Assembly: GCA_046590235.1 (NCBI GenBank)
Contig: JBKJTY010000035.1
Coordinates: 14,722-78,721 of the forward strand
Reading direction: 5' to 3'
Length of the DNA stretch: 64,000 nt
Source: Candidatus Magasanikiibacteriota bacterium
GTDB taxonomy: Bacteria > Patescibacteriota > Patescibacteriia > Magasanikbacterales > GWA2-37-8
The stretch's first letter is position 1. Every line of letters starts with the position of its first letter. Both the position numbers and the translations under genes were made by a program. Below are positions 13,228 through 31,329 of this stretch, piece by piece. The notes beneath the pieces are model-generated. The model was not told where the DNA came from. It searched no databases and saw only the letters and a list, made by a program, of their open reading frames with translations.

Positions 13228-13257
13228 TAAAAAAGTAGCTGGAAAGCTACTTTTTTA
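13228..13257. terminator. bidirectional terminator hairpin at the elp3 3' end
   Basis: aaaaaaGTAGCTggaaAGCTACtttttt overlaps the elp3 stop codon. Confidence 0.5.
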
Positions 13258-14902
13258 ATGTTTTAACCATATAAGTCTTCTCGAGTTTGTAGCCCCATTT
13301 GCGGTAATAACCACGAACGCCCACACCCGATATAACTGCCAGTTTATCAACTTTACTTTTCTTAACAATTTTTTCCGCCTGCAACACCAACTTTCTTCCT
13401 AAACCTTTATGCTGTGTAGATTCTTTCTGCTGCTTGCCGATACGCACTAGCTGGCCATAAGTATGAAGCTCGCGAATATACGCGCCATATGAGTTTAACT
13501 TTTTATTAGGATGGATAACTGGAACGGTAACTACACGCAAGCGACAGAAAGCAAACACTACTTGGCGCTTCTTATCTTCGTAGCTAATAAAATATTCAAT
13601 ACCACCACGAGTTTCGTATTCATCAATAAACAAAACCGGTTCGAGTTGTTTTGCTGTCCAACCGTCAGTATTCACGTGTCCGATTTCACGACAGCGCAAA
13701 CATTTGCACGTAGTACCATCTTTCTTCATTTCCATTTCAATTACTTGGCGAAGGTTGGTGACCTTGTTACCTTCTTCAATGTATTGGCCTGGAATATCAC
13801 GGATCAAGCGTGAGACACGGGAATAGCGAGGGAGGTGGCTTTTAAATGTTTTGATAATATCGATCAAGTCACGAGTTGGATATGCTTTGTATTTACCCTG
13901 CATAAACAAGTCGTACAATTCAGAACCCTTCACGACCGTGCAGGGGTAAATCTTAATCATATCTGGTTTAAATCCTGGATCAGTAAAAATACTTTCCATC
14001 ATCTCTAAGTCCATTTGCGGAGTAGCACCAGGTAATTGTGGCATCAAATGGAAGTCCACCTTATAGCCATAGTTACGGAGCAATTCAGTTGCTTCACGAG
14101 AACGCTCAGTTGTATGTCCGCGCTTGGTCAATGCTAAAACACGGTCGTCTGTATGCTGGATACCAAGTTCAAGGCGAGTACAGCCTTGTTCGCGCATCTG
14201 CCAAATAGTATGTTTGTTAATACAATCCGGGCGAGTTTCCAAGGTCAGGCCAATAATACGGTGTTTCGCACCTTCATTAAGTCTCTGTTGTTTATATAAT
14301 TCAGCTTTTAATTTTTCGAGCGAAGATGTTTCAGTCAGTTTAGTAAATTTCGGATTCTTTTTTCCGTAGGTATTGCACGCTTCAAATGATCGGAGGATAA
14401 ACCAATATTGGTAGGCGAGGGGATAGGAGTTCCAGGTACCGCCTTTAACAATGAATTCAATTTTATCAGTCGGATGTCCGTTATTTTCGAGCGCTTCAAT
14501 ACGACGGGCCATTTGCTCAAAGGGATCAAAATGTAACATGAGCGCGCGCATCGCGGCAGGCTCTTCAGACAAATAACTTTTCGGCATACGTTCGTCCAAT
14601 GGGCAATAGGTACATTCGCCAGGACATGGATATGGTTTAACTAAAGAAGTAACAATCGTAACACCAGATAATGTTCGGACGGCACGGCGCATTAACATTT
14701 TTTCAAGCGCCTTATTTTGAGTAATTCTTTTCTTCTTCAGCAAGGTATGGTAAACTCTCAAAAGTTCAGTTTTGGTCGGGAAACTCTTCTCACTTTTTAT
14801 ACCAGTCACCGTATCGCGTTTCAGGGTATTAAAAGCAGCCTCGTCTTTCGGGAGTTTAATAGCCGCAGCAAGAATAATTTTTTCAGCATTATGGTTAAGC
14901 AT
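13247..14902 (-). CDS. elp3: Elp3-family radical SAM/GNAT protein (tRNA U34 carboxymethyl-modification enzyme homolog)
   Basis: Radical-SAM cysteine cluster CPGECTYCP, a TIM-barrel radical-SAM region, and a C-terminal GNAT-like segment (QHKGLGRKLVLQAEKIV...). 551 aa. Confidence 0.7.
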   Translation of the reverse strand: MLNHNAEKIILAAAIKLPKDEAAFNTLKRDTVTGIKSEKSFPTKTELLRVYHTLLKKKRITQNKALEKMLMRRAVRTLSGVTIVTSLVKPYPCPGECTYCPLDERMPKSYLSEEPAAMRALMLHFDPFEQMARRIEALENNGHPTDKIEFIVKGGTWNSYPLAYQYWFILRSFEACNTYGKKNPKFTKLTETSSLEKLKAELYKQQRLNEGAKHRIIGLTLETRPDCINKHTIWQMREQGCTRLELGIQHTDDRVLALTKRGHTTERSREATELLRNYGYKVDFHLMPQLPGATPQMDLEMMESIFTDPGFKPDMIKIYPCTVVKGSELYDLFMQGKYKAYPTRDLIDIIKTFKSHLPRYSRVSRLIRDIPGQYIEEGNKVTNLRQVIEMEMKKDGTTCKCLRCREIGHVNTDGWTAKQLEPVLFIDEYETRGGIEYFISYEDKKRQVVFAFCRLRVVTVPVIHPNKKLNSYGAYIRELHTYGQLVRIGKQQKESTQHKGLGRKLVLQAEKIVKKSKVDKLAVISGVGVRGYYRKWGYKLEKTYMVKTLKK

Positions 14903-15598: not shown

Positions 15599-15624
15599 TA
15601 TAGCGACTGCTGTGGATAATTGCA

Positions 15625-15653
15625 TTGACCTTAGGCAAAAATAGGACTATACT
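15625..15653 (+). promoter_or_regulatory. promoter TTGACC-N17-TATACT driving the GC-rich cassette
   Basis: TTGACC at 15625-15630, a 17-nt spacer, TATACT at 15648-15653. Confidence 0.5.
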
Positions 15654-15667
15654 CGTTCAATAGTTAT

Positions 15668-15775
15668 ATGAATCATATTCAATCCTACAATTTGTGCGCA
15701 ATGAAGAAGTTGGTTATTACCACCTCTATTGTCGTGCGTTTTGATAGCCAGGGTGAATATGGTCTTCGTGCATAA
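15668..15775 (+). CDS. small ORF (35 aa) at the 5' end of the GC-rich cassette; possible leader peptide or small protein
   Basis: ATG 15668 ... TAA. The ORF is just downstream of the promoter; there is no homology evidence. Confidence 0.2.
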   Translation: MNHIQSYNLCAMKKLVITTSIVVRFDSQGEYGLRA

Positions 15776-15936
15776 ACAAGTGCATCAATCCATCCTTTCA
15801 CCCTGAACTACCAAGTTCGGGGCTTTTTTATGAGAGGGGTGTAACGTCGTTTGGAGCAGCCAGTTTTAAGAGAGATTGGCTGATCCAAAGGATCCAGTTC
15901 GCTATATCGGCGACTGTCACACGGCAGGAGTCTCAG

Positions 15937-16233
15937 ATGAACATCGATCGGCACATGGAAGGCATTCGCACTAGGAGCGACATCGAGAAGGAGCGCAAGC
16001 AGAAGGAGCGCGAGAAGCTCGAGGACAGCGTCAAGCTGTCGATGTGGATCGGGAACAACCAGAAGGCCAGGGGAGTTTTGCAGCTCCCGTCGGACATCAA
16101 CGTCCTTCCGGGCTGCGGCTGCGAGAAGAAGGACCAGATCGGCAAGAAGGGGTTCTCGATGACTCGCCTCAACGTGAGCCTGCCCTGGGAACACTACCGG
16201 TGCCCGAAGAAGGCTAAGAAGGGTAACGCCTAG
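15937..16233 (+). CDS. hypothetical basic protein (98 aa), GC-rich with foreign codon usage
   Basis: RBS AGGAG 7 nt upstream. Codons are strongly G/C-ending (GAG, AAG, CTC, GGC), unlike the flanking genes. Sequence is KERKQKEREKLED...HYRCPKKAKKG. Confidence 0.5.
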   Translation: MNIDRHMEGIRTRSDIEKERKQKEREKLEDSVKLSMWIGNNQKARGVLQLPSDINVLPGCGCEKKDQIGKKGFSMTRLNVSLPWEHYRCPKKAKKGNA

Positions 16234-16254
16234 TTTCCGAAGCTGCTGCCGTGC

Positions 16255-16310
16255 GGAGGGAGGCGGTCCATATATTTCGACGAACAGTCGAATACATGGC
16301 CGCCCCCTCC
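16255..16310 (+). other. long hairpin (15-bp stem with a nested inner hairpin) between the ORF and the ribozyme
   Basis: GGAGGGAGGCGGTCCAT ... ATGGCCGCCCCCTCC; the loop contains a TTCGAC/GTCGAA palindrome. Confidence 0.5.
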
Positions 16311-16312
16311 GA

Positions 16313-16383
16313 GCCTCTATTCTTTCCTTAGTAAGGAAACTGATGAGTCCCTGATAGTTATGAAGAGGACGAAAATAGAAGTG
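16313..16383 (+). ncRNA. hammerhead self-cleaving ribozyme, type III topology (predicted cleavage between 16322 and 16323)
   Basis: Helix III 5' strand CUCUAU (16315-16320), then UUC with cleavage predicted after it. Helix I is UUUCCUU-AGU-AAGGAAA (16323-16339). CUGAUGA is at 16340-16346. Helix II is GUCC-16 nt loop-GGAC, with G10.1-C11.1 conserved. GAAA is at 16371-16374. Helix III 3' strand is AUAGAAG. Confidence 0.6.
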
Positions 16384-16477
16384 TAATCATATAGATCAGT
16401 GAGTTGTTGTATGACGATTGACTGATCTACATGATTTTGCACTTTCACCGGCCACACGGCCGCATTGGAGGCAGCAC

Positions 16478-16657
16478 ATGTGTGAGGCAAAGGATGGTTC
16501 GTTTAGTGGCGTTTCCACACAGAGCGATCTTTCGCCTGAAGACCAGGCTGAACTCGCTAAGCTCGTTACGCCAACATCGGTCACACCGGTCAAGCCGCGC
16601 GAGCTCATCGATGCGCGCAAGCAGTGCTCGGAGCGCACGAAGCCGCCGATCTGGTAG
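16478..16657 (+). CDS. hypothetical small acidic protein (59 aa), GC-rich
   Basis: RBS GGAGG upstream of the ATG; same foreign codon usage as its neighbours. Confidence 0.4.
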   Translation: MCEAKDGSFSGVSTQSDLSPEDQAELAKLVTPTSVTPVKPRELIDARKQCSERTKPPIW

Positions 16658-16804
16658 TTCTTTTTTCCTCCCGGTCGGCCAGGTATGTGTACCTGGCCGA
16701 CCGCGGAGTTCAATCTGAACGATAAGCTATTTTTAAAAAATGGTTTACCGGTCCGATTGACCTACGACTACCATACCGGTGGTCTAAACAAAGGAGTAGT
16801 TCGC

Positions 16805-17194
16805 ATGAGCCGGCCGTTCAAGGTCTTTGGTGCGCTGAGCAGTGAAGGCCTCAAGTTTCTCGAGGAGTTCTTCGAGGGAGGAAAGGAGGAGTTCGAGCAG
16901 TCGCTGGCGTTGGTCCTCGACAAGGGCCATCTCAACCTGAAGAAGGGTGTGCGGATCGAGATCCAGATCCCGCTGATCGTCTTCACTTTGAAGGCGAGCG
17001 CGCAGACGAAGCTCGAGGGCATGTCGCTCGTGAGCGACTCGCTCGTCGAGGTCGCAAAGACCGAAAAGGGGAAGGAAAAGTTTTTCGTCTTCGAGCGCTT
17101 TAAGCTCGTTGAGAAGTACCCCGCCGCCAAGACGCCCCAGCTCGCGATCGTTCCGACCGAGGCGGAAGCTGGCGTCGCCGAAACGGCCGCCTAA
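16805..17194 (+). CDS. hypothetical protein (129 aa), GC-rich
   Basis: RBS AAGGAG upstream; G/C-ending codons; no recognisable motif. Confidence 0.5.
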   Translation: MSRPFKVFGALSSEGLKFLEEFFEGGKEEFEQSLALVLDKGHLNLKKGVRIEIQIPLIVFTLKASAQTKLEGMSLVSDSLVEVAKTEKGKEKFFVFERFKLVEKYPAAKTPQLAIVPTEAEAGVAETAA

Positions 17195-17213
17195 CGGTGG
17201 TCACAACACAATA

Positions 17214-17247
17214 GGGGATGGTAGCAGCTACGCTGGCTACCATCCCC
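17214..17247 (+). terminator. strong hairpin terminator closing the GC-rich cassette
   Basis: GGGGATGGTAGC-agctacgctg-GCTACCATCCCC, a 12-bp stem. Confidence 0.55.
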
Positions 17248-17315
17248 GAACCTTATTCTTATTTTGTTAACGTCCATCACGGCCGTTTTTTTATTTTTTA
17301 TGGTATAATAAAGCC

Positions 17316-18224
17316 ATGACACTTTCCATCATCCTAGCCGCCATCGGTTTTTCCCTCCTAGCGATCGTCACCATCCTCGATAAGTTTATTGTCTCCAACG
17401 AAAAAGTTTCACCGTTGGTCTTTGTTTTTTATTCTACTATAATTGCACTACCACTCGTTCTTATTACACCGTTCGCAGAACCGCTCGCCACTACGCGTCT
17501 CTGGATTTTTGCCGGTGTCAGTGGTACGAGTTACGCAATAGCGCTTTATACATTGTATAAAGGTTTTCAAGCTAGCGAAGTAAGTCATGTCGGGCCGCTA
17601 GTCGGTGCGATGGTACCAATTTTTACAATTCTTCTCAGCACATTTTTTGCTCCTGAAATATTTTCACAAAATCAAATGTTTGGGATCGGCTTACTCGTAT
17701 TTGGTTCTCTGATTATTTCAATTGAGAATGATAAACATTTTTTTGGTTGGCATGAAAGCATGTTGTGGGGAGTGGTAGCAGCATTTTTCTTTGCACTTTT
17801 TTATACGACGGCAAAACCAGTCTACGATGGTGCAGGTTTTTATCCGGGTTTTGTTTGGGTTTGGTTGCCAATGGGGCTGTGGGGAATCGCGCTACTCGTA
17901 TTTTCTAAAGCAGTTCGCAAGCATGTTTTTACAAAACGAAAAAAACAAGCAGCTACAAATCATAAAGACACACTTATTATTATTTCCAATAAAGTTGCGG
18001 CCTTCGCGGCTGTCGGTCTGACACAATACGCTGTCTCGATTGGGAGTGTAACGATCGTGAATGCGCTCACCGGTTTACAATATGCAGTACTTGTAACATT
18101 AGTTGGTGTCTTATCTCATTTTAAACCAAAATTATTTAAAGAAGAGTATACACATGGTGAGGTGTTGCAAGAAACACTTGCGGTACTACTTATAATCGCT
18201 GGTTTAGCTTTGTTATTGGTTTAG
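17316..18224 (+). CDS. polytopic membrane protein, probably a DMT/EamA-like transporter
   Basis: About 10 TM segments in two halves; there is an extended -10 (TGGTATAAT) upstream. Confidence 0.4.
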   Translation: MTLSIILAAIGFSLLAIVTILDKFIVSNEKVSPLVFVFYSTIIALPLVLITPFAEPLATTRLWIFAGVSGTSYAIALYTLYKGFQASEVSHVGPLVGAMVPIFTILLSTFFAPEIFSQNQMFGIGLLVFGSLIISIENDKHFFGWHESMLWGVVAAFFFALFYTTAKPVYDGAGFYPGFVWVWLPMGLWGIALLVFSKAVRKHVFTKRKKQAATNHKDTLIIISNKVAAFAAVGLTQYAVSIGSVTIVNALTGLQYAVLVTLVGVLSHFKPKLFKEEYTHGEVLQETLAVLLIIAGLALLLV

Positions 18225-19276: not shown

Positions 19277-19350
19277 GCGCACTTAGCTCAGTTGGTTAGA
19301 GCATCTCGTTTACACCGAGAGGGTCGAGGGTTCGAATCCCCCAGTGCGCA
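19277..19350 (+). tRNA. tRNA-Val (anticodon TAC)
   Basis: Acceptor stem GCGCACT/AGTGCGC, D-arm GCTC..GAGC, anticodon stem TCTCG/CGAGA with loop TTTACAC, T-loop TTCGAAT. No CCA is encoded. There is one A-C mismatch in the T-stem. Confidence 0.8.
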
Positions 19351-19356
19351 CGTATG

Positions 19357-19389
19357 AAAATAGCAGCTTAACGCTGTTGTTTTTTTATT
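19357..19389 (+). terminator. terminator module T (left direct repeat of the islet)
   Basis: aaaatAGCAGCttaacGCTGTTgttttttt; an almost identical copy is at 21619-21648 and a variant at 20604-20634. Confidence 0.55.
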
Positions 19390-19463
19390 CCTACTTCATT
19401 CGAGCACCATGTCGTGCACAATAAAAACACATTCGTTTAATCGAGTGTGTTTTGTTGTGTGTA

Positions 19464-19492
19464 TTGACAAAATTGCATTTTATTGCTATACT
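19464..19492 (+). promoter_or_regulatory. promoter TTGACA-N17-TATACT for cassette A
   Basis: TTGACA at 19464-19469, TATACT at 19487-19492. Confidence 0.5.
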
Positions 19493-19554
19493 ATGCCGTT
19501 GGGATTAATTTCTCAACACAACCATAAACGTTTTTTACAACCCAAGGAGTAGTG

Positions 19555-20412
19555 ATGGAAAAGGTGCGTGCCGTAGCGGTTCTGTTGTTCATGTTTACAA
19601 CCTCCAACCTTGCCATCGCGGCAGAGAAAGAGCTCTCGATTCCCAAGGATCAGCTAGCCCTGCTCGACAAGGCCAGGAAGGCCCTCGTCAAGATCGCCGC
19701 CAAGAGCGACCGTGCGAAAGGGTTGTTGGCTTTGTACAACAACCACGCAGTTCCGGCCCTTACCGATAGCGACCAGGTTCGGATCGTTTCCATCCCGAAG
19801 GTGGTGCCGTACTTTTTTGTGGCGGCGAACCCGCGGGTTGAGACGCAAGTCTCGAATGAGGGTGGAACATTCGCCTATTTTAACTGTACTGAACAGCCGA
19901 GCTTGCTCTTGAAGAATTTCCCGACTGTCTCAGAAACGGTCCATGGCATTATGCTGGCCCACGAGTTGGTGCATGCTGAGGACTGCCTGTTCGGAGGCGA
20001 GGGGGCAAATAAACAGCATGATGATGCTTGGTTGATCGGCGAATTGCATGCGCACAACACTGTCTGGATGCTGCTTAACGACATCTCCGACGGAGGTTGG
20101 AATAAGGTTGTGACAGGTTCTCTCCGTCGGCGAATGCAGATGATGAGCGCCGGCCAGGACAACCCGAAAGCAATGGTCTTCGGATATTCTACAGATGATA
20201 TCGTGAGCATTGAAAAAATGTTCGGTGCCCAAGATGATGTCGCAATCGGCGCCTTGATTGCCCAACTCCAGGTTGATGTGAACATGCTCAAAATCGCGCT
20301 CAATACACCTGGCAGCGGCGTGCTCTACGACGTGTCTCCTGAACTGGCAGAAAATCAGTTGAGGTTAGTCAAAGCGTTCTACAAAGAGAACGAACAAGCT
20401 ATTCAGCAGTAG
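19555..20412 (+). CDS. secreted protein with an HExxH-like motif (possible metallopeptidase-like), GC-rich cassette A
   Basis: RBS AAGGAG; signal peptide (AVAVLLFMFTTSNLAIAAE); motif AHELVHAED; GC-rich codon usage. The ORF track's first M is a GTG at 19552. Confidence 0.5.
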   Translation: MEKVRAVAVLLFMFTTSNLAIAAEKELSIPKDQLALLDKARKALVKIAAKSDRAKGLLALYNNHAVPALTDSDQVRIVSIPKVVPYFFVAANPRVETQVSNEGGTFAYFNCTEQPSLLLKNFPTVSETVHGIMLAHELVHAEDCLFGGEGANKQHDDAWLIGELHAHNTVWMLLNDISDGGWNKVVTGSLRRRMQMMSAGQDNPKAMVFGYSTDDIVSIEKMFGAQDDVAIGALIAQLQVDVNMLKIALNTPGSGVLYDVSPELAENQLRLVKAFYKENEQAIQQ

Positions 20413-20430
20413 CGGTTTCTTCGCAAACCG

Positions 20431-20634
20431 CCACGGTCCCGGATACTCAGGGGATCGTGGCGAGTAGGGTCAAAAAACCACCTACAAACTCACGAAGTTT
20501 TCAAGCGATTGGAAATTTCATGAGTAGGTGGTTTTTTAATTCCAACCACCGCTTTATTTCTCTAACCATGGTGTTCCATCGAGCACCCACGTCGTGCACA
20601 CATGAAAATAACAGTGTTTAGCTGTTATTTTTTT
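20431..20634 (+). repeat. structured 3' repeat unit of cassette A (modules S1 stem-loop, S2 long hairpin, M motif, T terminator)
   Basis: S1 is ccacggtccc...gggatcgtgg. S2 is aaaaaaccacctac-38 nt-gtaggtggtttttt. M is ggtgttccatcgagcacccacgtcgtgcaca. T is aaaataacagtgtttagctgttattttttt. All four are repeated after cassette B. Confidence 0.55.
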
Positions 20635-20656
20635 GTCTTCACACAAGCTTCAATCC

Positions 20657-20685
20657 TTGACAATGGATCAAAAATTAATTACACT
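20657..20685 (+). promoter_or_regulatory. promoter TTGACA-N17-TACACT for cassette B
   Basis: TTGACA at 20657-20662, TACACT at 20680-20685. Confidence 0.45.
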
Positions 20686-20734
20686 GTCACAGCCCTTTTC
20701 CAATGAAACCTTCTATCCCTTGGAGAAATAAACG

Positions 20735-21424
20735 ATGCGTGCAATTATTTTCACGATCTTCATTGCTGCTCTGCAGCCGTTGGGTGAGCAGCCTATAAAA
20801 TCACAAGCACCTTTAGCGGAAGAAAAGACAGCCTCTTTGGCTTGTAAGAACGGTCAGGAAGGGCTCAAGAACACGAAAGGATCGCCGTGGTGGTGGATTA
20901 ATAAGATCAATCGGAATTGCGACGCAGAAGCAAGTCGTGAAGCCTACCGTGCAAACTGGGAGCGTTTTCGGACAACTTTCCCAGTTGCGGCAGCTTGGAT
21001 GGCTATGCAGTTAGACTATGTAGTCGACGCAACAATCATCCAGAAAGACCTGTTGTCAGGCTTCGTAACAAACGTAAACTTTGATTCTGACGCAATTGAT
21101 CCAGAAATGGCACAAAAAATACTCGAAAGATTAAAGGGTTATGGTGCCATAATTTCTGCCGAATCAAAACCAATCATTGTGACGGTAACCAGCGTGTTCG
21201 ACAAGCCGGATTGGTCAGAAGCAGACAAGTACCGATACGTCTTTGCCTGCAAGTTTTCTCAAGTGGTGATGGAGTATGGAGCCTTCAAGGTAATTGCTGA
21301 TGCCGCCGATGAAGTCGTAGTGCCAGACATTTACATGAAAATGGGAGATTGTCACGAGTTAATGACAGTCATCCCCGAGTTGGTAGAAAATATCGTGGCT
21401 GAATACCGCAAGCAGAACAAATGA
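20735..21424 (+). CDS. secreted hypothetical protein, GC-rich cassette B
   Basis: Signal peptide MRAIIFTIFIAALQP; GC-rich; no recognisable motif. Confidence 0.5.
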   Translation: MRAIIFTIFIAALQPLGEQPIKSQAPLAEEKTASLACKNGQEGLKNTKGSPWWWINKINRNCDAEASREAYRANWERFRTTFPVAAAWMAMQLDYVVDATIIQKDLLSGFVTNVNFDSDAIDPEMAQKILERLKGYGAIISAESKPIIVTVTSVFDKPDWSEADKYRYVFACKFSQVVMEYGAFKVIADAADEVVVPDIYMKMGDCHELMTVIPELVENIVAEYRKQNK

Positions 21425-21438
21425 ACATGTCAAAAAGT

Positions 21439-21648
21439 CACCGCGATCCCGGATACTCTGGGGGTCGTGGTGGGAGCTAAAAAACCACCTACAAACTCAT
21501 AAGTTTTTCAAGTAATTGGAAACTTCATGAGTAGGTGGTTTTTTATTTCAACACTTCCAACCATCGCCTAATCTCAACAACCACGGTGTTCCATCGAGCA
21601 CCCACGTCGTGCACATATAAAATAGCAGCTTAATGCTGTTGTTTTTTT
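21439..21648 (+). repeat. structured 3' repeat unit of cassette B (S1, S2, M, T). The T copy is the right direct repeat of the islet.
   Basis: Modules are colinear with 20431-20634. The S1 stem has compensatory changes (caccgcgatccc/ggggtcgtggtg versus ccacggtccc/gggatcgtgg). Confidence 0.55.
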
Positions 21649-21658
21649 ATACCCACAA

Positions 21659-21933: not shown

Positions 21934-24069
21934 ATGTTTATGCAAAAAAGTAAAAGGATTTCGACGCTATCAATCGCGTTACTTAGTTTGCTTTCTTTGG
22001 CAACTTCACTATTTAATCCAATAGCAGCGTCAGCGCTTGAAACATGGACTGAACGTCGGCCTGAAGGCATCGATGGCGATAATACTTGGGAAGGTGCTAG
22101 CGATGCTGATGGGTCAAACCTGATCGCAATAAACACAGCTGGTGAATTATTCATTTCGACAGATAGTGGTGTTAGCTGGAATCCGACTAATCCAGTACTA
22201 GATTCTGAAAATTGGAGCACGGTAGCATCTGATGCAGATGGTTCAAATTTAATTGTTGCACGCAATGGTCGTGCTTACATTACGACTAATGGCGGTTCTA
22301 GCTGGGCTGAAACACAACCAGCAGGGGATACAGATAAGTTGTGGATAACTGTTGGTAGTGATGCTGACGGCTCCACACTTATGGCAGCTGCTAGTTTTGG
22401 TCGTTTGTACATCTCTGCAAACGGTGGTACTACATGGACCGAACGCCAGCCAGCTGGAGATGTTAATAGTAGTTGTCAAAGCATGGTATCAGACACTACT
22501 GGTACTAATCTTTTTGTTCAATGTGCGAACCGTCTTTATACTTCAACTGATGGTGGTGTCAATTGGACTGAACGCCAGCCTATGGGTAATACAAATTTTT
22601 TTGCGAGAGATCTTGCTTCTGATGCGACAGGTTTAAAACTTGTTGCGGGCGTTGAAGGTGGTCGCCTGTATACGTCAGCCGACGGTGGCGCTACATGGAC
22701 CGAGCGTCAACCTGCTGGGGATACAAATCAACAGTGGGTAGGACTTGATTCGGGTGCAGATGGCACACATTTGATCGCAGCGGCGAACTCTGGTCGTTTG
22801 TACACATCCTCAGATAGCGGTGTTACTTGGACTGAGCGCCGGCCAGCAGGTGATGTAGATATAGGATGGAGATTTGCGGCCATGGGCGGTAATTTTACTT
22901 TCTTTGTAGGTGCAAATAATGGTAGGTTGTATACGGGTATTATAGATGAAGCCGGCCCAATAATTACCACTTACTCCCCAGCTGACAATGCTACCGATGT
23001 TGCTGTTACTGCCAATCTCACTATCACCCTAGATAGCACCTTCGTCACCGGAACAAACAAAAATATTATCATTAAAAAATCTTCTGACGATAGTATTGTT
23101 GAAACAATTTCAGTTAGCAGTAGTCAAGTAATCGCAAGTGGTTTAGAAATTACCATTAATCCAAGCGCATCTTTGAGCTATAGTACAAGCTACTATGTCC
23201 AAATGGACGCTGGTGCGTTCCAAGACGCCTATAGCAATGACATGCTAGCTATCTCCAATACAACAACCTGGAACTTTACAACTGTCGCCGCACCACGAGT
23301 TGGTGGTGGCGGATATAGTCCACCACTCGTTTCCACACCAGTCGCGCCTGTAATCACCATGCCAATTTACGAACCACCCCTCATCCCCAATCCAGCGGAT
23401 CCGGTAACAATCTCACCAATAAACATTGCGCCACCTATTATTGTGCAACCTGTCATTGCTCCTGTTGCACCAGTCATTACGCCGGTGGTCGTTGTTCCAG
23501 AAGTAACAACCCCTGTTGTCGTCACGCCTGTCTCAGCCCCGCTCATTACTGCGCCACCAATCCAAGTTAAACTCCTCAACCCAGGCATCCGCTCAGTAGA
23601 AGTGTTAAATCTTCAAAAAACACTTAACCAACTCGGTTATACTGTTGCACAAACTGGTCCTGGCTCAATCGGCAATGAAACAAATTTCTTCGGTAAAGCC
23701 ACCTATAACGCGCTTCTGAATTTCCAAAAATTAAATAATTTGCCAACAACCGGTATTGCCGATAAAGCTACAATAGAAACAATCAATCAAAAGTCTGTTA
23801 CAGGAGAAGTACTAGGTGTAAAACTCATTAAATTTACACGCAACTTAGCAACCGGCAGTAATGGCGATGATGTTAAACGCTTACAGCAGTGGCTTAATGC
23901 CAACGGCTTCACGGTCGCGGAGTCAGGTCCTGGCTCTGTTGGTAAAGAAACTAAACAGTTCGGTAAAGCAACCCGCGAAGCACTCAAACGCTTCCAAAAG
24001 GATAGTGGTGAAAAAGAAACGGGAATCTTTAGCGTAAACACAAAAGAGAAGATTAATGGAATGCTCTAA
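21934..24069 (+). CDS. secreted BNR/Asp-box beta-propeller protein with an Ig-like domain, a Pro-rich linker and two C-terminal peptidoglycan-binding domains
   Basis: Signal peptide. At least six Sx[DN]xGxxW repeats (STDSGVSWN, TTNGGSSWA, SANGGTTWT, STDGGVNWT, SADGGATWT, SSDSGVTWT). Pro/Val linker. Two PG_binding_1-like repeats (LQKTLNQLGYTV..., VKRLQQWLNANGFTV...). Confidence 0.65.
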   Translation: MFMQKSKRISTLSIALLSLLSLATSLFNPIAASALETWTERRPEGIDGDNTWEGASDADGSNLIAINTAGELFISTDSGVSWNPTNPVLDSENWSTVASDADGSNLIVARNGRAYITTNGGSSWAETQPAGDTDKLWITVGSDADGSTLMAAASFGRLYISANGGTTWTERQPAGDVNSSCQSMVSDTTGTNLFVQCANRLYTSTDGGVNWTERQPMGNTNFFARDLASDATGLKLVAGVEGGRLYTSADGGATWTERQPAGDTNQQWVGLDSGADGTHLIAAANSGRLYTSSDSGVTWTERRPAGDVDIGWRFAAMGGNFTFFVGANNGRLYTGIIDEAGPIITTYSPADNATDVAVTANLTITLDSTFVTGTNKNIIIKKSSDDSIVETISVSSSQVIASGLEITINPSASLSYSTSYYVQMDAGAFQDAYSNDMLAISNTTTWNFTTVAAPRVGGGGYSPPLVSTPVAPVITMPIYEPPLIPNPADPVTISPINIAPPIIVQPVIAPVAPVITPVVVVPEVTTPVVVTPVSAPLITAPPIQVKLLNPGIRSVEVLNLQKTLNQLGYTVAQTGPGSIGNETNFFGKATYNALLNFQKLNNLPTTGIADKATIETINQKSVTGEVLGVKLIKFTRNLATGSNGDDVKRLQQWLNANGFTVAESGPGSVGKETKQFGKATREALKRFQKDSGEKETGIFSVNTKEKINGML

Positions 24070-30146: not shown

Positions 30147-30560
30147 ATGCAGTCTGTTGTGGGTACGTACTTCCGTCTTGCTCGTGAAAACGAGGTTATC
30201 GACGAAGACGGGTACTTCCACGGTTATATCTGCCAGATGGACCACGGCATCGAACTCGATCGAAGCCGACCGGTGTTCTCGATCGAGGCACTCAAGGAGT
30301 ACCTCGACAAGACCAACACCGTCGATACTGGCGAGTTCGTCGCGACCGCCCGGAAGCTCAAGTTTCCGGAAGAAAAGACGGCTCGCGATCTGTTCTATGA
30401 CGACATGTACGCCCTCGAGGAAGAAGGCGATCGCGTCCGGGCTAAGCGAGCTCTCCCGATGGAGAAGTTCATGAATCTCATGATCCTGGCCGGCCTGTCG
30501 GAACGCGAGCGGGTCGCGGCAAACCTCTTCGGAGGAAGCGCGCAGCACGCAGCCGCGTAA
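30147..30560 (+). CDS. hypothetical protein, GC-rich with foreign codon usage (alternative start at 30126)
   Basis: RBS AAGGGGA upstream of the 30147 ATG; G/C-ending codons; no recognisable motif. Confidence 0.45.
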   Translation: MQSVVGTYFRLARENEVIDEDGYFHGYICQMDHGIELDRSRPVFSIEALKEYLDKTNTVDTGEFVATARKLKFPEEKTARDLFYDDMYALEEEGDRVRAKRALPMEKFMNLMILAGLSERERVAANLFGGSAQHAAA

Positions 30561-30813: not shown

Positions 30814-31329
30814 ATGAAAGTCGTGAAAGGTCAAAGCCGATTGGTTATTATCTTTCCGATGCTCGGTATTGCAGTCAAATTTCCTCGCGTGTATGTAACT
30901 CAAGGACTACGTACTTTGCATCACCAAGTAAGTCGCGGTAGGTTTCAGAGAGCGTGGAAGCGAGGTATGCATTTGCCAGGCAGTATCCGCGGCCCATTTT
31001 TCCAGGGTGTCGTGATCAATTGGCATGAATTCCGGTTCTATCGGAATACTCGCCACACGTTCTTGCAGCCAACGTACTTCTCATTGTTTGGCTTCGTGAA
31101 TATCCAAAGGGCTGGGAAACCTTGCCTTGAAGATCCGCCGAAATTCTGGAATAAAATGCACTGTGTAATTGGTGATGCGTTGTTCATCGATCCACACCAT
31201 TTTGAAAATCCGGACAACTTCACGGTTGTTAACGGAAAACTCAAGATGCACGACTATGGGTGGGGCGATACGCAGCAGATCATCAAGGAGTACGGAAGAA
31301 GAATTGCCGATGAAGTTGCGCTCGGCTAG
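30814..31329 (+). CDS. hypothetical basic protein (171 aa)
   Basis: Strong RBS AAGGAGG 9 nt upstream of the ATG; no recognisable motif. Confidence 0.4.
   Translation: MKVVKGQSRLVIIFPMLGIAVKFPRVYVTQGLRTLHHQVSRGRFQRAWKRGMHLPGSIRGPFFQGVVINWHEFRFYRNTRHTFLQPTYFSLFGFVNIQRAGKPCLEDPPKFWNKMHCVIGDALFIDPHHFENPDNFTVVNGKLKMHDYGWGDTQQIIKEYGRRIADEVALG

Follow-up and report, generated by a model that had tools for sequence, protein, structure and literature searches.

What is a block of about 1.4 kb of GC-rich small genes doing among the less GC-rich genes of a bacterium of the candidate phyla radiation (CPR, or Patescibacteria), and does its composition mean that it arrived there recently? The block lies in a 64,000-nucleotide stretch of contig JBKJTY010000035.1, from the Candidatus Magasanikiibacteriota bacterium assembly GCA_046590235.1 (this whole stretch is referred to as the window, and coordinates are those of the window unless otherwise stated), and it contains three small open reading frames (ORF1, ORF2 and ORF3) and a hammerhead ribozyme motif, all on the plus strand. 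The initial annotation of this DNA took it for a self-contained module of horizontal origin. Comparison with related genomes leads elsewhere, and the interval is best read as the variable portion of a lineage-specific expression slot in the chromosomes of a Patescibacteria (CPR) clade. As to how the slot works, the sequence comparisons point, with what we judge to be about an even chance of being right, to an operon of fast-evolving small proteins that would be gated by an attenuator and whose mRNA would be split by the ribozyme.

The compositional contrast is large. The block (15.85–17.2 kb) is about 56% GC, compared with 41.3% for the whole window; 500-nucleotide (nt) intervals at 16001–17500 have a GC fraction of 0.51–0.55, and 100-nt intervals within the block reach 0.56–0.66. 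In a reference set of 25 clear host genes the GC fraction at third codon positions (GC3) is 0.340 ± 0.036 with a maximum of 0.42, against which the values for ORF1 (0.89, z = +15), ORF2 (0.67, z = +9) and ORF3 (0.84, z = +14) stand well apart. Likewise, the codon adaptation index (CAI) to host usage is 0.41–0.52 for the cassette ORFs and 0.705 ± 0.024 for host genes, and individual codon choices are shifted accordingly (cassette and host counts are, respectively, 34:0 and 205:652 for AAG:AAA, 15:0 and 177:280 for CTC:TTA, 21:9 and 125:540 for GAG:GAA, and 12:1 and 267:467 for ATC:ATT). The contrast with the flanks that the initial annotation had described in GC, GC3 and codon usage is thus borne out by windowed GC, GC3 and CAI scans. 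GC at second codon positions (GC2) stays host-like in ORF1 and ORF3 (0.34–0.37; it is 0.50 in ORF2), and the bias is therefore located at synonymous positions of the plus-strand frames.

The surroundings of the block are of a different kind. On one flank lie genes for SHMT, an Elp3-like radical-SAM/GNAT protein (13247–14902, minus strand; 551 amino acids [aa], conserved across this CPR clade) and a methyltransferase, and on the other lie genes for an EamA-family transporter, a GH5-like glycosidase and tRNA-Val. Relatives were sought by scanning genome collections with the Elp3-like protein, which yielded 13 loci, the best with 78–85% protein identity, all from Patescibacteria/CPR-type metagenome-assembled genomes (Peregrinibacteria, Peribacteria, Gracilibacteria and 'Patescibacteria group'). 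A metagenome scan anchored on EamA gave 80 further loci, with gene content read in those that were fetched, and a profile search with ORF-A, a gene found in several relatives, gave six clusters and added contigs L124–L128, L129, L130 and L131 (L numbers designate loci). L003, L004, L005 and L015 are titled 'uncultured Gammaproteobacteria bacterium' despite Patescibacteria-type gene content and synteny, and their taxonomy looks mislabelled.

The same cassette in related genomes, proposed in the initial annotation as a check, is indeed present immediately upstream of EamA. A homologous cassette occupies this position in L003, L124, L005, L129 and L130 (Elp3-like proteins 78–85% identical). In L003 (84% identical) the interval between methyltransferase and EamA is likewise GC-rich, and contains, in order, the promoter and leader, a structured 5′ untranslated region (UTR), ORF-A (143 aa), a second copy of the 5′ UTR, an ORF1 homologue (116 aa), a long hairpin, the hammerhead, an ORF3 homologue (143 aa) and a terminal hairpin, followed by EamA; a BlastN comparison with the window aligns one internal piece, the hairpin and hammerhead (16247–16385, 73% identity). 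The gene order is therefore ORF1–hammerhead–ORF2–ORF3 in the window, ORF-A–ORF1–hammerhead–ORF3 in L003 and L124, and ORF-A–hammerhead in L005, L129 and L130. L124–L128 have 85% nucleotide identity to L003 and an identical gene order, and L129, L130 and L131 resemble L005 (78% identical), which has the leader, a hairpin, ORF-A, a second hairpin, the hammerhead and a terminator before EamA. Elsewhere the leader and other small ORFs precede EamA with no hammerhead (L006/L044, L039, L020, L023, L082 and L026), or GC-rich small genes precede it and the leader is absent (L024, L040 and L086). The lineage-specific genes of the slot include a proline-rich 57-mer, zinc-ribbon-like peptides and a relative of ORF-A. 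Their GC3 is 0.66–0.91 in 8 of 11 lineages, compared with 0.33–0.55 for the adjacent EamA gene, and it is high regardless of host composition and across unrelated genes.

These comparisons bear directly on recent horizontal acquisition, in which a foreign self-contained module (a phage moron or mini-island) was inserted between host genes. Such an event would account for the extreme GC3 and codon contrast, the orphan proteins, and a lineage-variable content that is GC3-rich whatever the GC3 of the host, and there is also a second GC-rich islet beside tRNA-Val. However, the slot, the leader, the hammerhead and homologues of ORF1 and ORF3 recur in relatives, and the promoter and leader are host-like in composition and conserved along with the host flank. 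L003 and L124 differ by about 15% in cassette and flanks alike, and neither this pair nor L005 and L129 shows any overall excess of cassette similarity over flank similarity of the kind expected of a recent transfer. Moreover, there are no convincing direct repeats or att-like duplications at the cassette ends and no copies of the cassette sequence elsewhere in the 64-kb window, Pfam searches reveal no integrase in the ORFs flanking the cassette (~13–21.4 kb) or among the called cassette-flanking genes of the relatives, and no phage homologues or viral contigs were found. A prophage moron in particular was rejected, the flanks being of housekeeping type (SHMT, Elp3-like, methyltransferase, EamA and GH5) and IMG/VR holding no relatives. 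It thus seems unlikely that the module arrived recently, and the horizontal origin first proposed for it is not upheld. Horizontal exchange of the cassette contents over longer timescales is a separate matter and may have occurred; the content differs between lineages and GC3 stays high throughout. Atypical composition at this locus does not equate with recent arrival, which is a caution for the reading of compositional 'foreignness' in general.

The synonymous-site bias, together with the ribosome-binding sites AGGAG, GGAGG and AAGGAG located 7–8 nt before the respective ATGs, argues that ORF1, ORF2 and ORF3 are genes. ORF1 (15937–16233) encodes a basic protein of 98 aa whose N-terminal half is charged and helical and which has, towards its C terminus, a CxC...HxxC motif that is shared with L003 and may bind zinc; it has homologues in L003 (28% identity, E = 1e-11) and L124. 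ORF2 (16478–16657, 59 aa) is a probable gene and the weakest of the three, with no homologue in the relatives or databases. ORF3 (16805–17194) encodes 129 aa from its ATG (public gene calls give 169 aa from 16685) and also has homologues in L003 (43% identity over 40 aa, E = 3e-9; 34% overall) and L124, with a conserved core KG-x-x-[IV]-x-I-x-IPL-x-x-F-x-LKA. In the 5′ UTR ahead of ORF1 (15835–15936, fold z = −5.2) is a hairpin (15857–15882) with the loop TAAGAGAGAT (15867–15876), which occurs once in the window. Copies precede both ORF-A and ORF1 in L003 (8382–8391 and 9014–9023 of that locus, minus strand) and ORF1 in L124 (for the ORF-A copy in L124 the extract covers the motif and the 5′ stem arm only), and the stem covaries (CCAGCC/GGCTGG versus CCAATC/GATTGG). 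Because the same UTR hairpin precedes the unrelated ORF-A and ORF1, it suggests that UTR-plus-gene modules have been duplicated or recombined.

Rates of substitution point the same way as codon usage. Between L003 and L124 the dN/dS ratio is 0.13 for ORF-A, 0.41 for ORF1 and 0.23 for ORF3, compared with 0.03–0.06 for the flanking methyltransferase, EamA and GH5 genes, so that these are constrained proteins evolving several-fold faster than host proteins. Synonymous divergence of ORF1, ORF3 and the L005-group ORF-A is below that of the flanking genes (for the L005-group ORF-A, dS is 0.15–0.38 compared with 1.04 for the adjacent EamA), with the exception of ORF-A between L003 and L124, where dS is 1.13 compared with flanking values of 0.60–1.03. 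A reading of the GC-rich block as chiefly a large, structured, non-coding RNA, with ORFs that are by-products of a scarcity of stop codons, is very improbable. The folding is certainly very strong (z of −5 to −8.6), long antisense ORFs are present, the proteins are orphans, and dN/dS is about 1 in some pairs. Against this, the three-base periodicity is strong and confined to the plus-strand frames (GC3 of 0.84–0.89 versus GC2 of 0.34–0.37 in ORF1 and ORF3), each start has a canonical ribosome-binding site, amino acid homology outlasts DNA alignability, dN/dS between L003 and L124 indicates constraint, and the hairpins lie between the ORFs and not inside them.

The proteins themselves offer few clues. 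Two of the small ORFs had first been reported to have no recognisable family; none of ORF1–3 has one, with Pfam, PHROGs and PADLOC searches all negative. ORF1 and ORF3 match only themselves among 5.8 billion proteins, an exhaustive phmmer search of ORF3 against 1.84 billion representatives likewise gives only the self-match, sequence profile searches of the PDB with ORF1 and ORF3 are negative, and scans of IMG/VR with alignments of the two find no relatives. A single-sequence AlphaFold2 model of ORF3 is unusable (predicted local distance difference test [pLDDT] 33). Small orphan proteins with dN/dS values 4–20 times those of flanking genes, and about 1 in some comparisons, could be expected of a conflict module (toxin-antitoxin, abortive-infection or anti-phage, or effector-immunity) under diversifying selection. 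However, no cassette protein has a PADLOC, Pfam or PHROG match, ORF1–3 offer neither a structural nor a sequence clue, and ORF-A is missing from the window and stands alone in L005-type loci with no obvious protein partner. We consider a conflict module quite improbable, and a type II toxin-antitoxin or known anti-phage system was rejected since ORF1–3 match no such families and the PDB sequence searches are negative too. The toxin/antitoxin, anti-phage and phage moron roles that had been suggested for the cassette thus find no support in Pfam, PHROGs, PADLOC, PDB sequences, the 5.8 billion proteins or IMG/VR.

If the slot is a native expression site, how is it expressed? The sigma-70-type promoter TTGACC-N17-TATACT (15625–15653, plus strand) reported earlier is recovered by a promoter scan, matches 10 of 12 consensus positions, and is conserved in position in all leader-bearing relatives, in keeping with the original view of one transcription unit with its own promoter. 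It does not appear to drive the ORFs directly, as had been supposed, but is separated from them by a terminator/antiterminator switch, and a promoter scan between the leader terminator and ORF1 finds no promoter-like site. Just 5 nt upstream of the −35 hexamer is an exact DnaA-box-like 9-mer on the minus strand, TTATCCACA (TGTGGATAA on the plus strand; 15611–15619), to which DnaA may bind. The same 9-mer lies 4–10 nt upstream of the −35 in L003, L005, L020, L023, L082 and L026, so that it is exact in seven of the nine lineages, and L006 and L039 each differ from it at one position. A second exact copy is present at 22340–22348, and GC skew near the 9-mers shows no origin-like switch.

Downstream of the promoter is a conserved leader RNA of about 175 nt (15660–15834, plus strand) for which an Rfam scan returns no family. 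The segment 15654–15834 is present once in the window and aligns with eight other leaders (nhmmer E values 1e-21 to 1e-33), giving nine distinct homologous leaders. It contains a short leader ORF (15668–15775) with an invariant ATG, box 1 (UCACUCC-like, 15679–15685), box 2 (GGGTGAA, or GGGUGAA as RNA; 15751–15757), a terminator 5′ arm (TTCACCCTG, or UUCACCCUG as RNA; 15797–15805) and an intrinsic terminator (stem 15801–15822, T-run 15824–15829), which was called by a terminator scan and had been missed in the initial annotation. The ATG, the two boxes and the terminator 5′ arm vary little or not at all among the leaders, and there are several further informative features. First, in the RNAalifold consensus box 2 pairs with the terminator 5′ arm; 91% of cells in this helix are paired across the nine leaders, compared with 38–53% in slid controls, five of its nine pairs have compensatory changes, and none of 500 shuffles is as good. 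Because that arm also forms half of the terminator stem, the helix is an antiterminator. Second, the leader ORF is open in all nine leaders (30–39 codons) and its stop lies 10–18 nt past box 2; mononucleotide shuffles keep it open in 7–35% of cases per leader, which, if the seven lineage groups are treated as independent, gives a chance of very roughly 2e-6. Third, box 2 falls in the frame GGU-GAA in the window but G-GUG-AA in L023 and L006, and since the boxes are read in different frames between lineages, they are conserved as RNA and the ORF as an open frame. Finally, the leader ORF is host-like in GC3 (0.42), and its ATG is about 8 nt from the predicted 5′ end.

With a terminator, a competing antiterminator and a conserved short ORF, this leader is a candidate attenuator, of which we have found no earlier description. 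It is thus also a candidate for a new cis-regulatory RNA from the CPR, where very little regulation has been characterised. The most likely logic would be ribosome-mediated attenuation of the trp/erm type. Numbering box 1 and box 2 as segments 1 and 2 and the terminator arms as 3 and 4, an untranslated leader would form the 1:2 and 3:4 helices and terminate. A ribosome that reaches the leader stop would cover box 2, so that the 3:4 terminator forms and transcription again terminates; a ribosome stalled early would leave box 2 free for the 2:3 antiterminator, and the polymerase would read into the cassette. The outcome would be either a terminated leader transcript of about 170 nt or a read-through transcript. 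The terminator and antiterminator helices are evident from the scan and the alignment, and the attenuation mechanism is inferred from their arrangement. The read-through transcript would encode three small, fast-evolving, cytoplasmic proteins in G/C-ending codons, with stable hairpins between them.

Between ORF1 and ORF2 that transcript would contain a type III hammerhead (16315–16380, plus strand; Rfam RF00008, Hammerhead_3, 43.3 bits, E = 1.2e-7). The motif noted in the initial annotation is upheld by comparison of six distinct and syntenic sequences (the window, L003, L124, L005, L129 and L130), in which the core is intact and the stems are conserved. None of the six departs from the core CUGAUGA...GAAA, U16.1 or the cleavage-site C17. 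Stems I, II and III are of 6, 4 and 6 bp in type III topology, 16 of the 17 stem pairs are standard in all six sequences, and ten have compensatory double changes (for example UCUAUU/AAUAGA versus UAGUCU/AGACUA in stem III, and UUUCCU/AGGAAA versus UCCCGC/GCGGGA in stem I); the core-adjacent pairs G-C, U-A (U-G in L130) and A-U are also preserved. These features conform to the acceptance rules of Perreault et al. 2011 (PMC3088659), and the element is a type III hammerhead by its defining structure though formally not by its Rfam score. Cleavage is predicted 3′ of C16322.

The ribozyme has a constant neighbor. Directly before the 5′ strand of stem III, all six loci have an imperfect hairpin of 26–30 bp with a folding energy of −40 to −48 kcal/mol (z −5.8 to −8.3), which in the window occupies 16251–16314 (−40 kcal/mol, z −5.8). 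An AT-rich 23-bp hairpin follows the ribozyme in the window only (16385–16436) and is absent from L003, and the intergenic RNA folds with z = −8.6. At Rfam gathering thresholds the whole window gives tRNA-Val only; at E values up to 10 there is no second ribozyme or riboswitch across the cassette and none other in the cassettes of the relatives, and the window contains no second hammerhead. Twenty-eight IMG/VR matches to a hammerhead DNA pattern were rejected, being either coding repeats or hammerhead-like motifs that differ in architecture and lie on contigs with no cassette proteins. An obelisk-, viroid- or retrozyme-like element was likewise rejected, there being a single ribozyme at a syntenic chromosomal site and no reverse transcriptase.

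The hammerhead would cut the read-through mRNA after C16322, between ORF1 and ORF2. The upstream product would be an ORF1 mRNA ending in the ~30-bp hairpin and a 2′,3′-cyclic phosphate, and the downstream product an ORF2–ORF3 mRNA whose 5′-OH lies within the folded ribozyme, which in the window is followed by the 23-bp hairpin. Hairpin and 2′,3′-cyclic-phosphate ends and structured 5′-OH ends are poor substrates for the usual end-dependent exonucleases. In vivo cleavage could thereby affect stability, and the two halves of the mRNA may differ in both stability and yield, giving uncoupled and stabilised expression. Indeed, the cutting of polycistronic RNA into pieces with different fates is a proposed role of bacterial hammerheads (PMC3088659; PMC6765202).

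Several observations count against an attenuator-gated operon with a ribozyme-split mRNA. First, every scored hammerhead copy falls below the Rfam gathering threshold of 48.5 bits (43.3 in the window, 41.8 in L003, 41.9 in L124 and 30.9 in L005; E values 1.2e-7 to 0.012); the low scores are due to a long loop II (16–17 nt) and an insertion in loop I, and not to the core. Second, in L005-type loci the ribozyme sits between a single gene and a terminator, so that operon splitting cannot be its general role; a role in giving the upstream mRNA a 3′ end at the hairpin would suit all of the loci better than the separation of two cistrons. Third, dN/dS is about 1 for ORF1 between the window and L003 and for the L005-group ORF-A (1.0–1.2 among L005, L129 and L130), so that the proteins of some members may be under weak constraint or none. 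Fourth, the model leaves the GC3 bias unexplained. The bias might come from exchange with an external, GC-rich pool of genes by recombination in the conserved flanks (leader and EamA), from a recombination hotspot subject to GC-biased gene conversion, or from selection, acting downstream of a switch that senses ribosomes, for rare codons or for mRNA structure. Fifth, the near-invariant box 1 and box 2 sequences form a helix that has no covariation beyond that of shuffles; it is paired in 78% of cells (86% in the 7-bp core, compared with 38–52% when slid), and covariation cannot support it because the sequences hardly vary. Sixth, the leader ORF has no Shine-Dalgarno sequence (the good ribosome-binding sites first credited to the small ORFs hold for ORF1–3, and this fourth ORF has none) and no run of any one codon. 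Finally, the same helices would also serve a switch controlled by a ligand or a protein.

The last two points favor a different reading of the leader, as a riboswitch or protein-binding switch, or as an independent small RNA (sRNA) or small-protein gene with the cassette expressed from an unrecognised promoter. The unit from promoter to terminator is complete on its own, the conservation of the boxes is at the RNA level, and the switch helices would suit any effector; moreover, the nine leader peptides contain no shared codon run, conserved peptide motif or known stalling motif. However, the two boxes are separated by a spacer of variable sequence and length (~55 to 90 nt), which is unlike an aptamer, and an antiterminator that competes with the terminator would be purposeless in a stand-alone sRNA. 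All nine lineages keep the ORF open and its stop at a fixed position, and at every leader-bearing locus examined (the nine aligned leaders plus L095, L044, L124–L126 and L128) the leader is followed by small ORFs that share its orientation and lie ahead of EamA. In L017 a weak leader-like match (E = 3e-5) stands ahead of a housekeeping-type gene, and we did not count it among the leaders. As to the missing Shine-Dalgarno sequence, the EamA gene is itself apparently leaderless (17301–17318), with an extended −10 element TGgTATAAT at 17301–17309 and its ATG 6 nt after it, and relatives have very short leaders too. Since short or absent leaders appear to be normal here, leaderless translation of the attenuator ORF is plausible. 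A leader that is not a leader-peptide attenuator is therefore a reading that we think improbable, and leader-peptide attenuation is preferred.

Could the gene content of the slot be connected with the ribozyme? ORF-A, which is absent from the window, is most often the gene just upstream of the hammerhead. A structural model from six sequences (pLDDT 78, predicted template-modelling score 0.76), in which His21, His37, Lys80 and Lys91 are invariant residues, suggests a fold related to RNases or RNA-end-binding proteins. The top structural neighbor is PDB 2pd0, which may belong to the MJ1316/DUF504 family of domains that recognise RNA 2′,3′-cyclic ends; no sequence link was found. This is a lead to RNA chemistry and is not transferable to ORF1–3. 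As a long shot, the slot might be a stress-gated platform for exchanging diversifying GC3-rich small proteins, with the hammerhead coupled to its cargo and ORF-A acting on the 2′,3′-cyclic-phosphate end of its own mRNA in an RNA-end signalling or feedback circuit. If this is true, a bacterial hammerhead would have been found in a new role, and the locus would represent a new type of hypervariable region.

The remaining features of the interval concern the end of the unit. A perfect 14-bp GC-rich hairpin (16672–16703) lies between ORF2 and ORF3, and a perfect 12-bp hairpin (17214–17247) closes the GC-rich block, both on the plus strand. The second was originally described as a terminator with a 12-bp stem; the hairpin stands but is probably not the terminator, as its U-tract is poor and interrupted and it was not called by the scan. 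Transcription probably ends near 17290, at the T-run (17286–17299) of a weak hairpin AACGTCC/GGCCGTT with a long T-run (17269–17299, plus strand), the position of which is conserved with L003; this hairpin is not in the minimum-free-energy fold, and the extended −10 of EamA starts 2 nt downstream. An independent Logan assembly (SRR31159418; L001/L002) of the same organism breaks inside ORF2, at 16556–16563, and the contig of one relative (L004) ends at the cassette promoter; such breaks may reflect low coverage or strain heterogeneity.

Two other places in the window had been credited with the same compositional signature, and both do have raised GC3, but to a less extreme degree. The first is a non-syntenic islet after tRNA-Val (19277–21650) with genes at 19552–20412 (GC3 0.65, a signal-peptide-like N-terminus and a HELVH [HExxH] motif) and 20735–21424 (GC3 0.49); no homologues of these genes or of the next host gene were found in any relative. 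GC-rich DNA (mostly 0.54–0.63) follows the same tRNA-Val in L003, and the matching stretch of L005 is close to the average of its locus. The second is a pair of orphan ORFs at 30147–30560 (GC3 0.72) and 30814–31329 (GC3 0.53), with no leader, hammerhead or cassette-like repeats, whose sole match is a weak one between the latter and PHROG phrog_4301 (E = 4e-4).

How does the slot compare with known systems? O-antigen and capsule loci and integron cassette arrays are hypervariable loci of atypical composition between conserved flanks. The slot resembles these in its fixed position, conserved flanks and gene content that is replaced between lineages, in a composition consistently unlike that of the genome, and in having one upstream promoter for small, promoterless and mostly orphan genes. 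It differs in having no integrase and no surface-polysaccharide genes, and in being biased to GC and not to AT. An integron cassette array or CALIN was considered and rejected, as the hairpins at 16251–16314, 16672–16703 and 17214–17247 do not have the attC R′′/R′ boxes (RYYYAAC...GTTRRRY) and no integrase was found among the ORFs flanking the cassette (~13–21.4 kb) or among the called flanking genes of the relatives.

The attenuators of the trp and his operons and the antibiotic-inducible erm, cat and bmrCD leaders are leader-peptide transcription attenuators, and the leader described here is like them in having a short ORF that overlaps segment 1, mutually exclusive 2:3 and 3:4 helices with a possible 1:2 helix, and an intrinsic terminator ahead of the genes that would be regulated. 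It is unlike them in that the stop codon follows segment 2 and is not located between segments 1 and 2, neither a regulatory codon run nor any known stalling motif is present, translation would begin with little or no 5′ leader, and the target genes are orphans.

The ribozyme shares its catalytic core and three-stem type III topology with bacterial and prophage type III hammerheads (PMC3088659; PMC6765202), and is also like them in being intergenic and lying on the coding strand, between small genes whose function is not known (PMC3088659). In contrast to those, there is no prophage or integrase nearby, there is one copy per locus and not a cluster, the ribozyme is vertically conserved at one CPR chromosomal site and always preceded by the 26–30-bp hairpin, its transcript would be attenuator-gated, and in some relatives it stands at the 3′ end of a single gene. 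A literature search found no paper reporting hammerheads in CPR/Patescibacteria, the matches to 'hammerhead' plus 'Patescibacteria' being unrelated by title and abstract. The element is thus a known class of ribozyme in a new setting: CPR, chromosomal, non-prophage, single copy and hairpin-paired. The role of genomic hammerheads in bacteria is still undefined (PMC6765202), and most of those known belong to prophages, which makes vertical comparison difficult. In the present case, because the site is fixed and not in a phage, there are natural variants with the ribozyme in mid-operon or at a 3′ end, and the partner hairpin is constant, what the cut achieves is directly testable, and the locus offers a tractable comparative system for asking what bacterial hammerheads are for.

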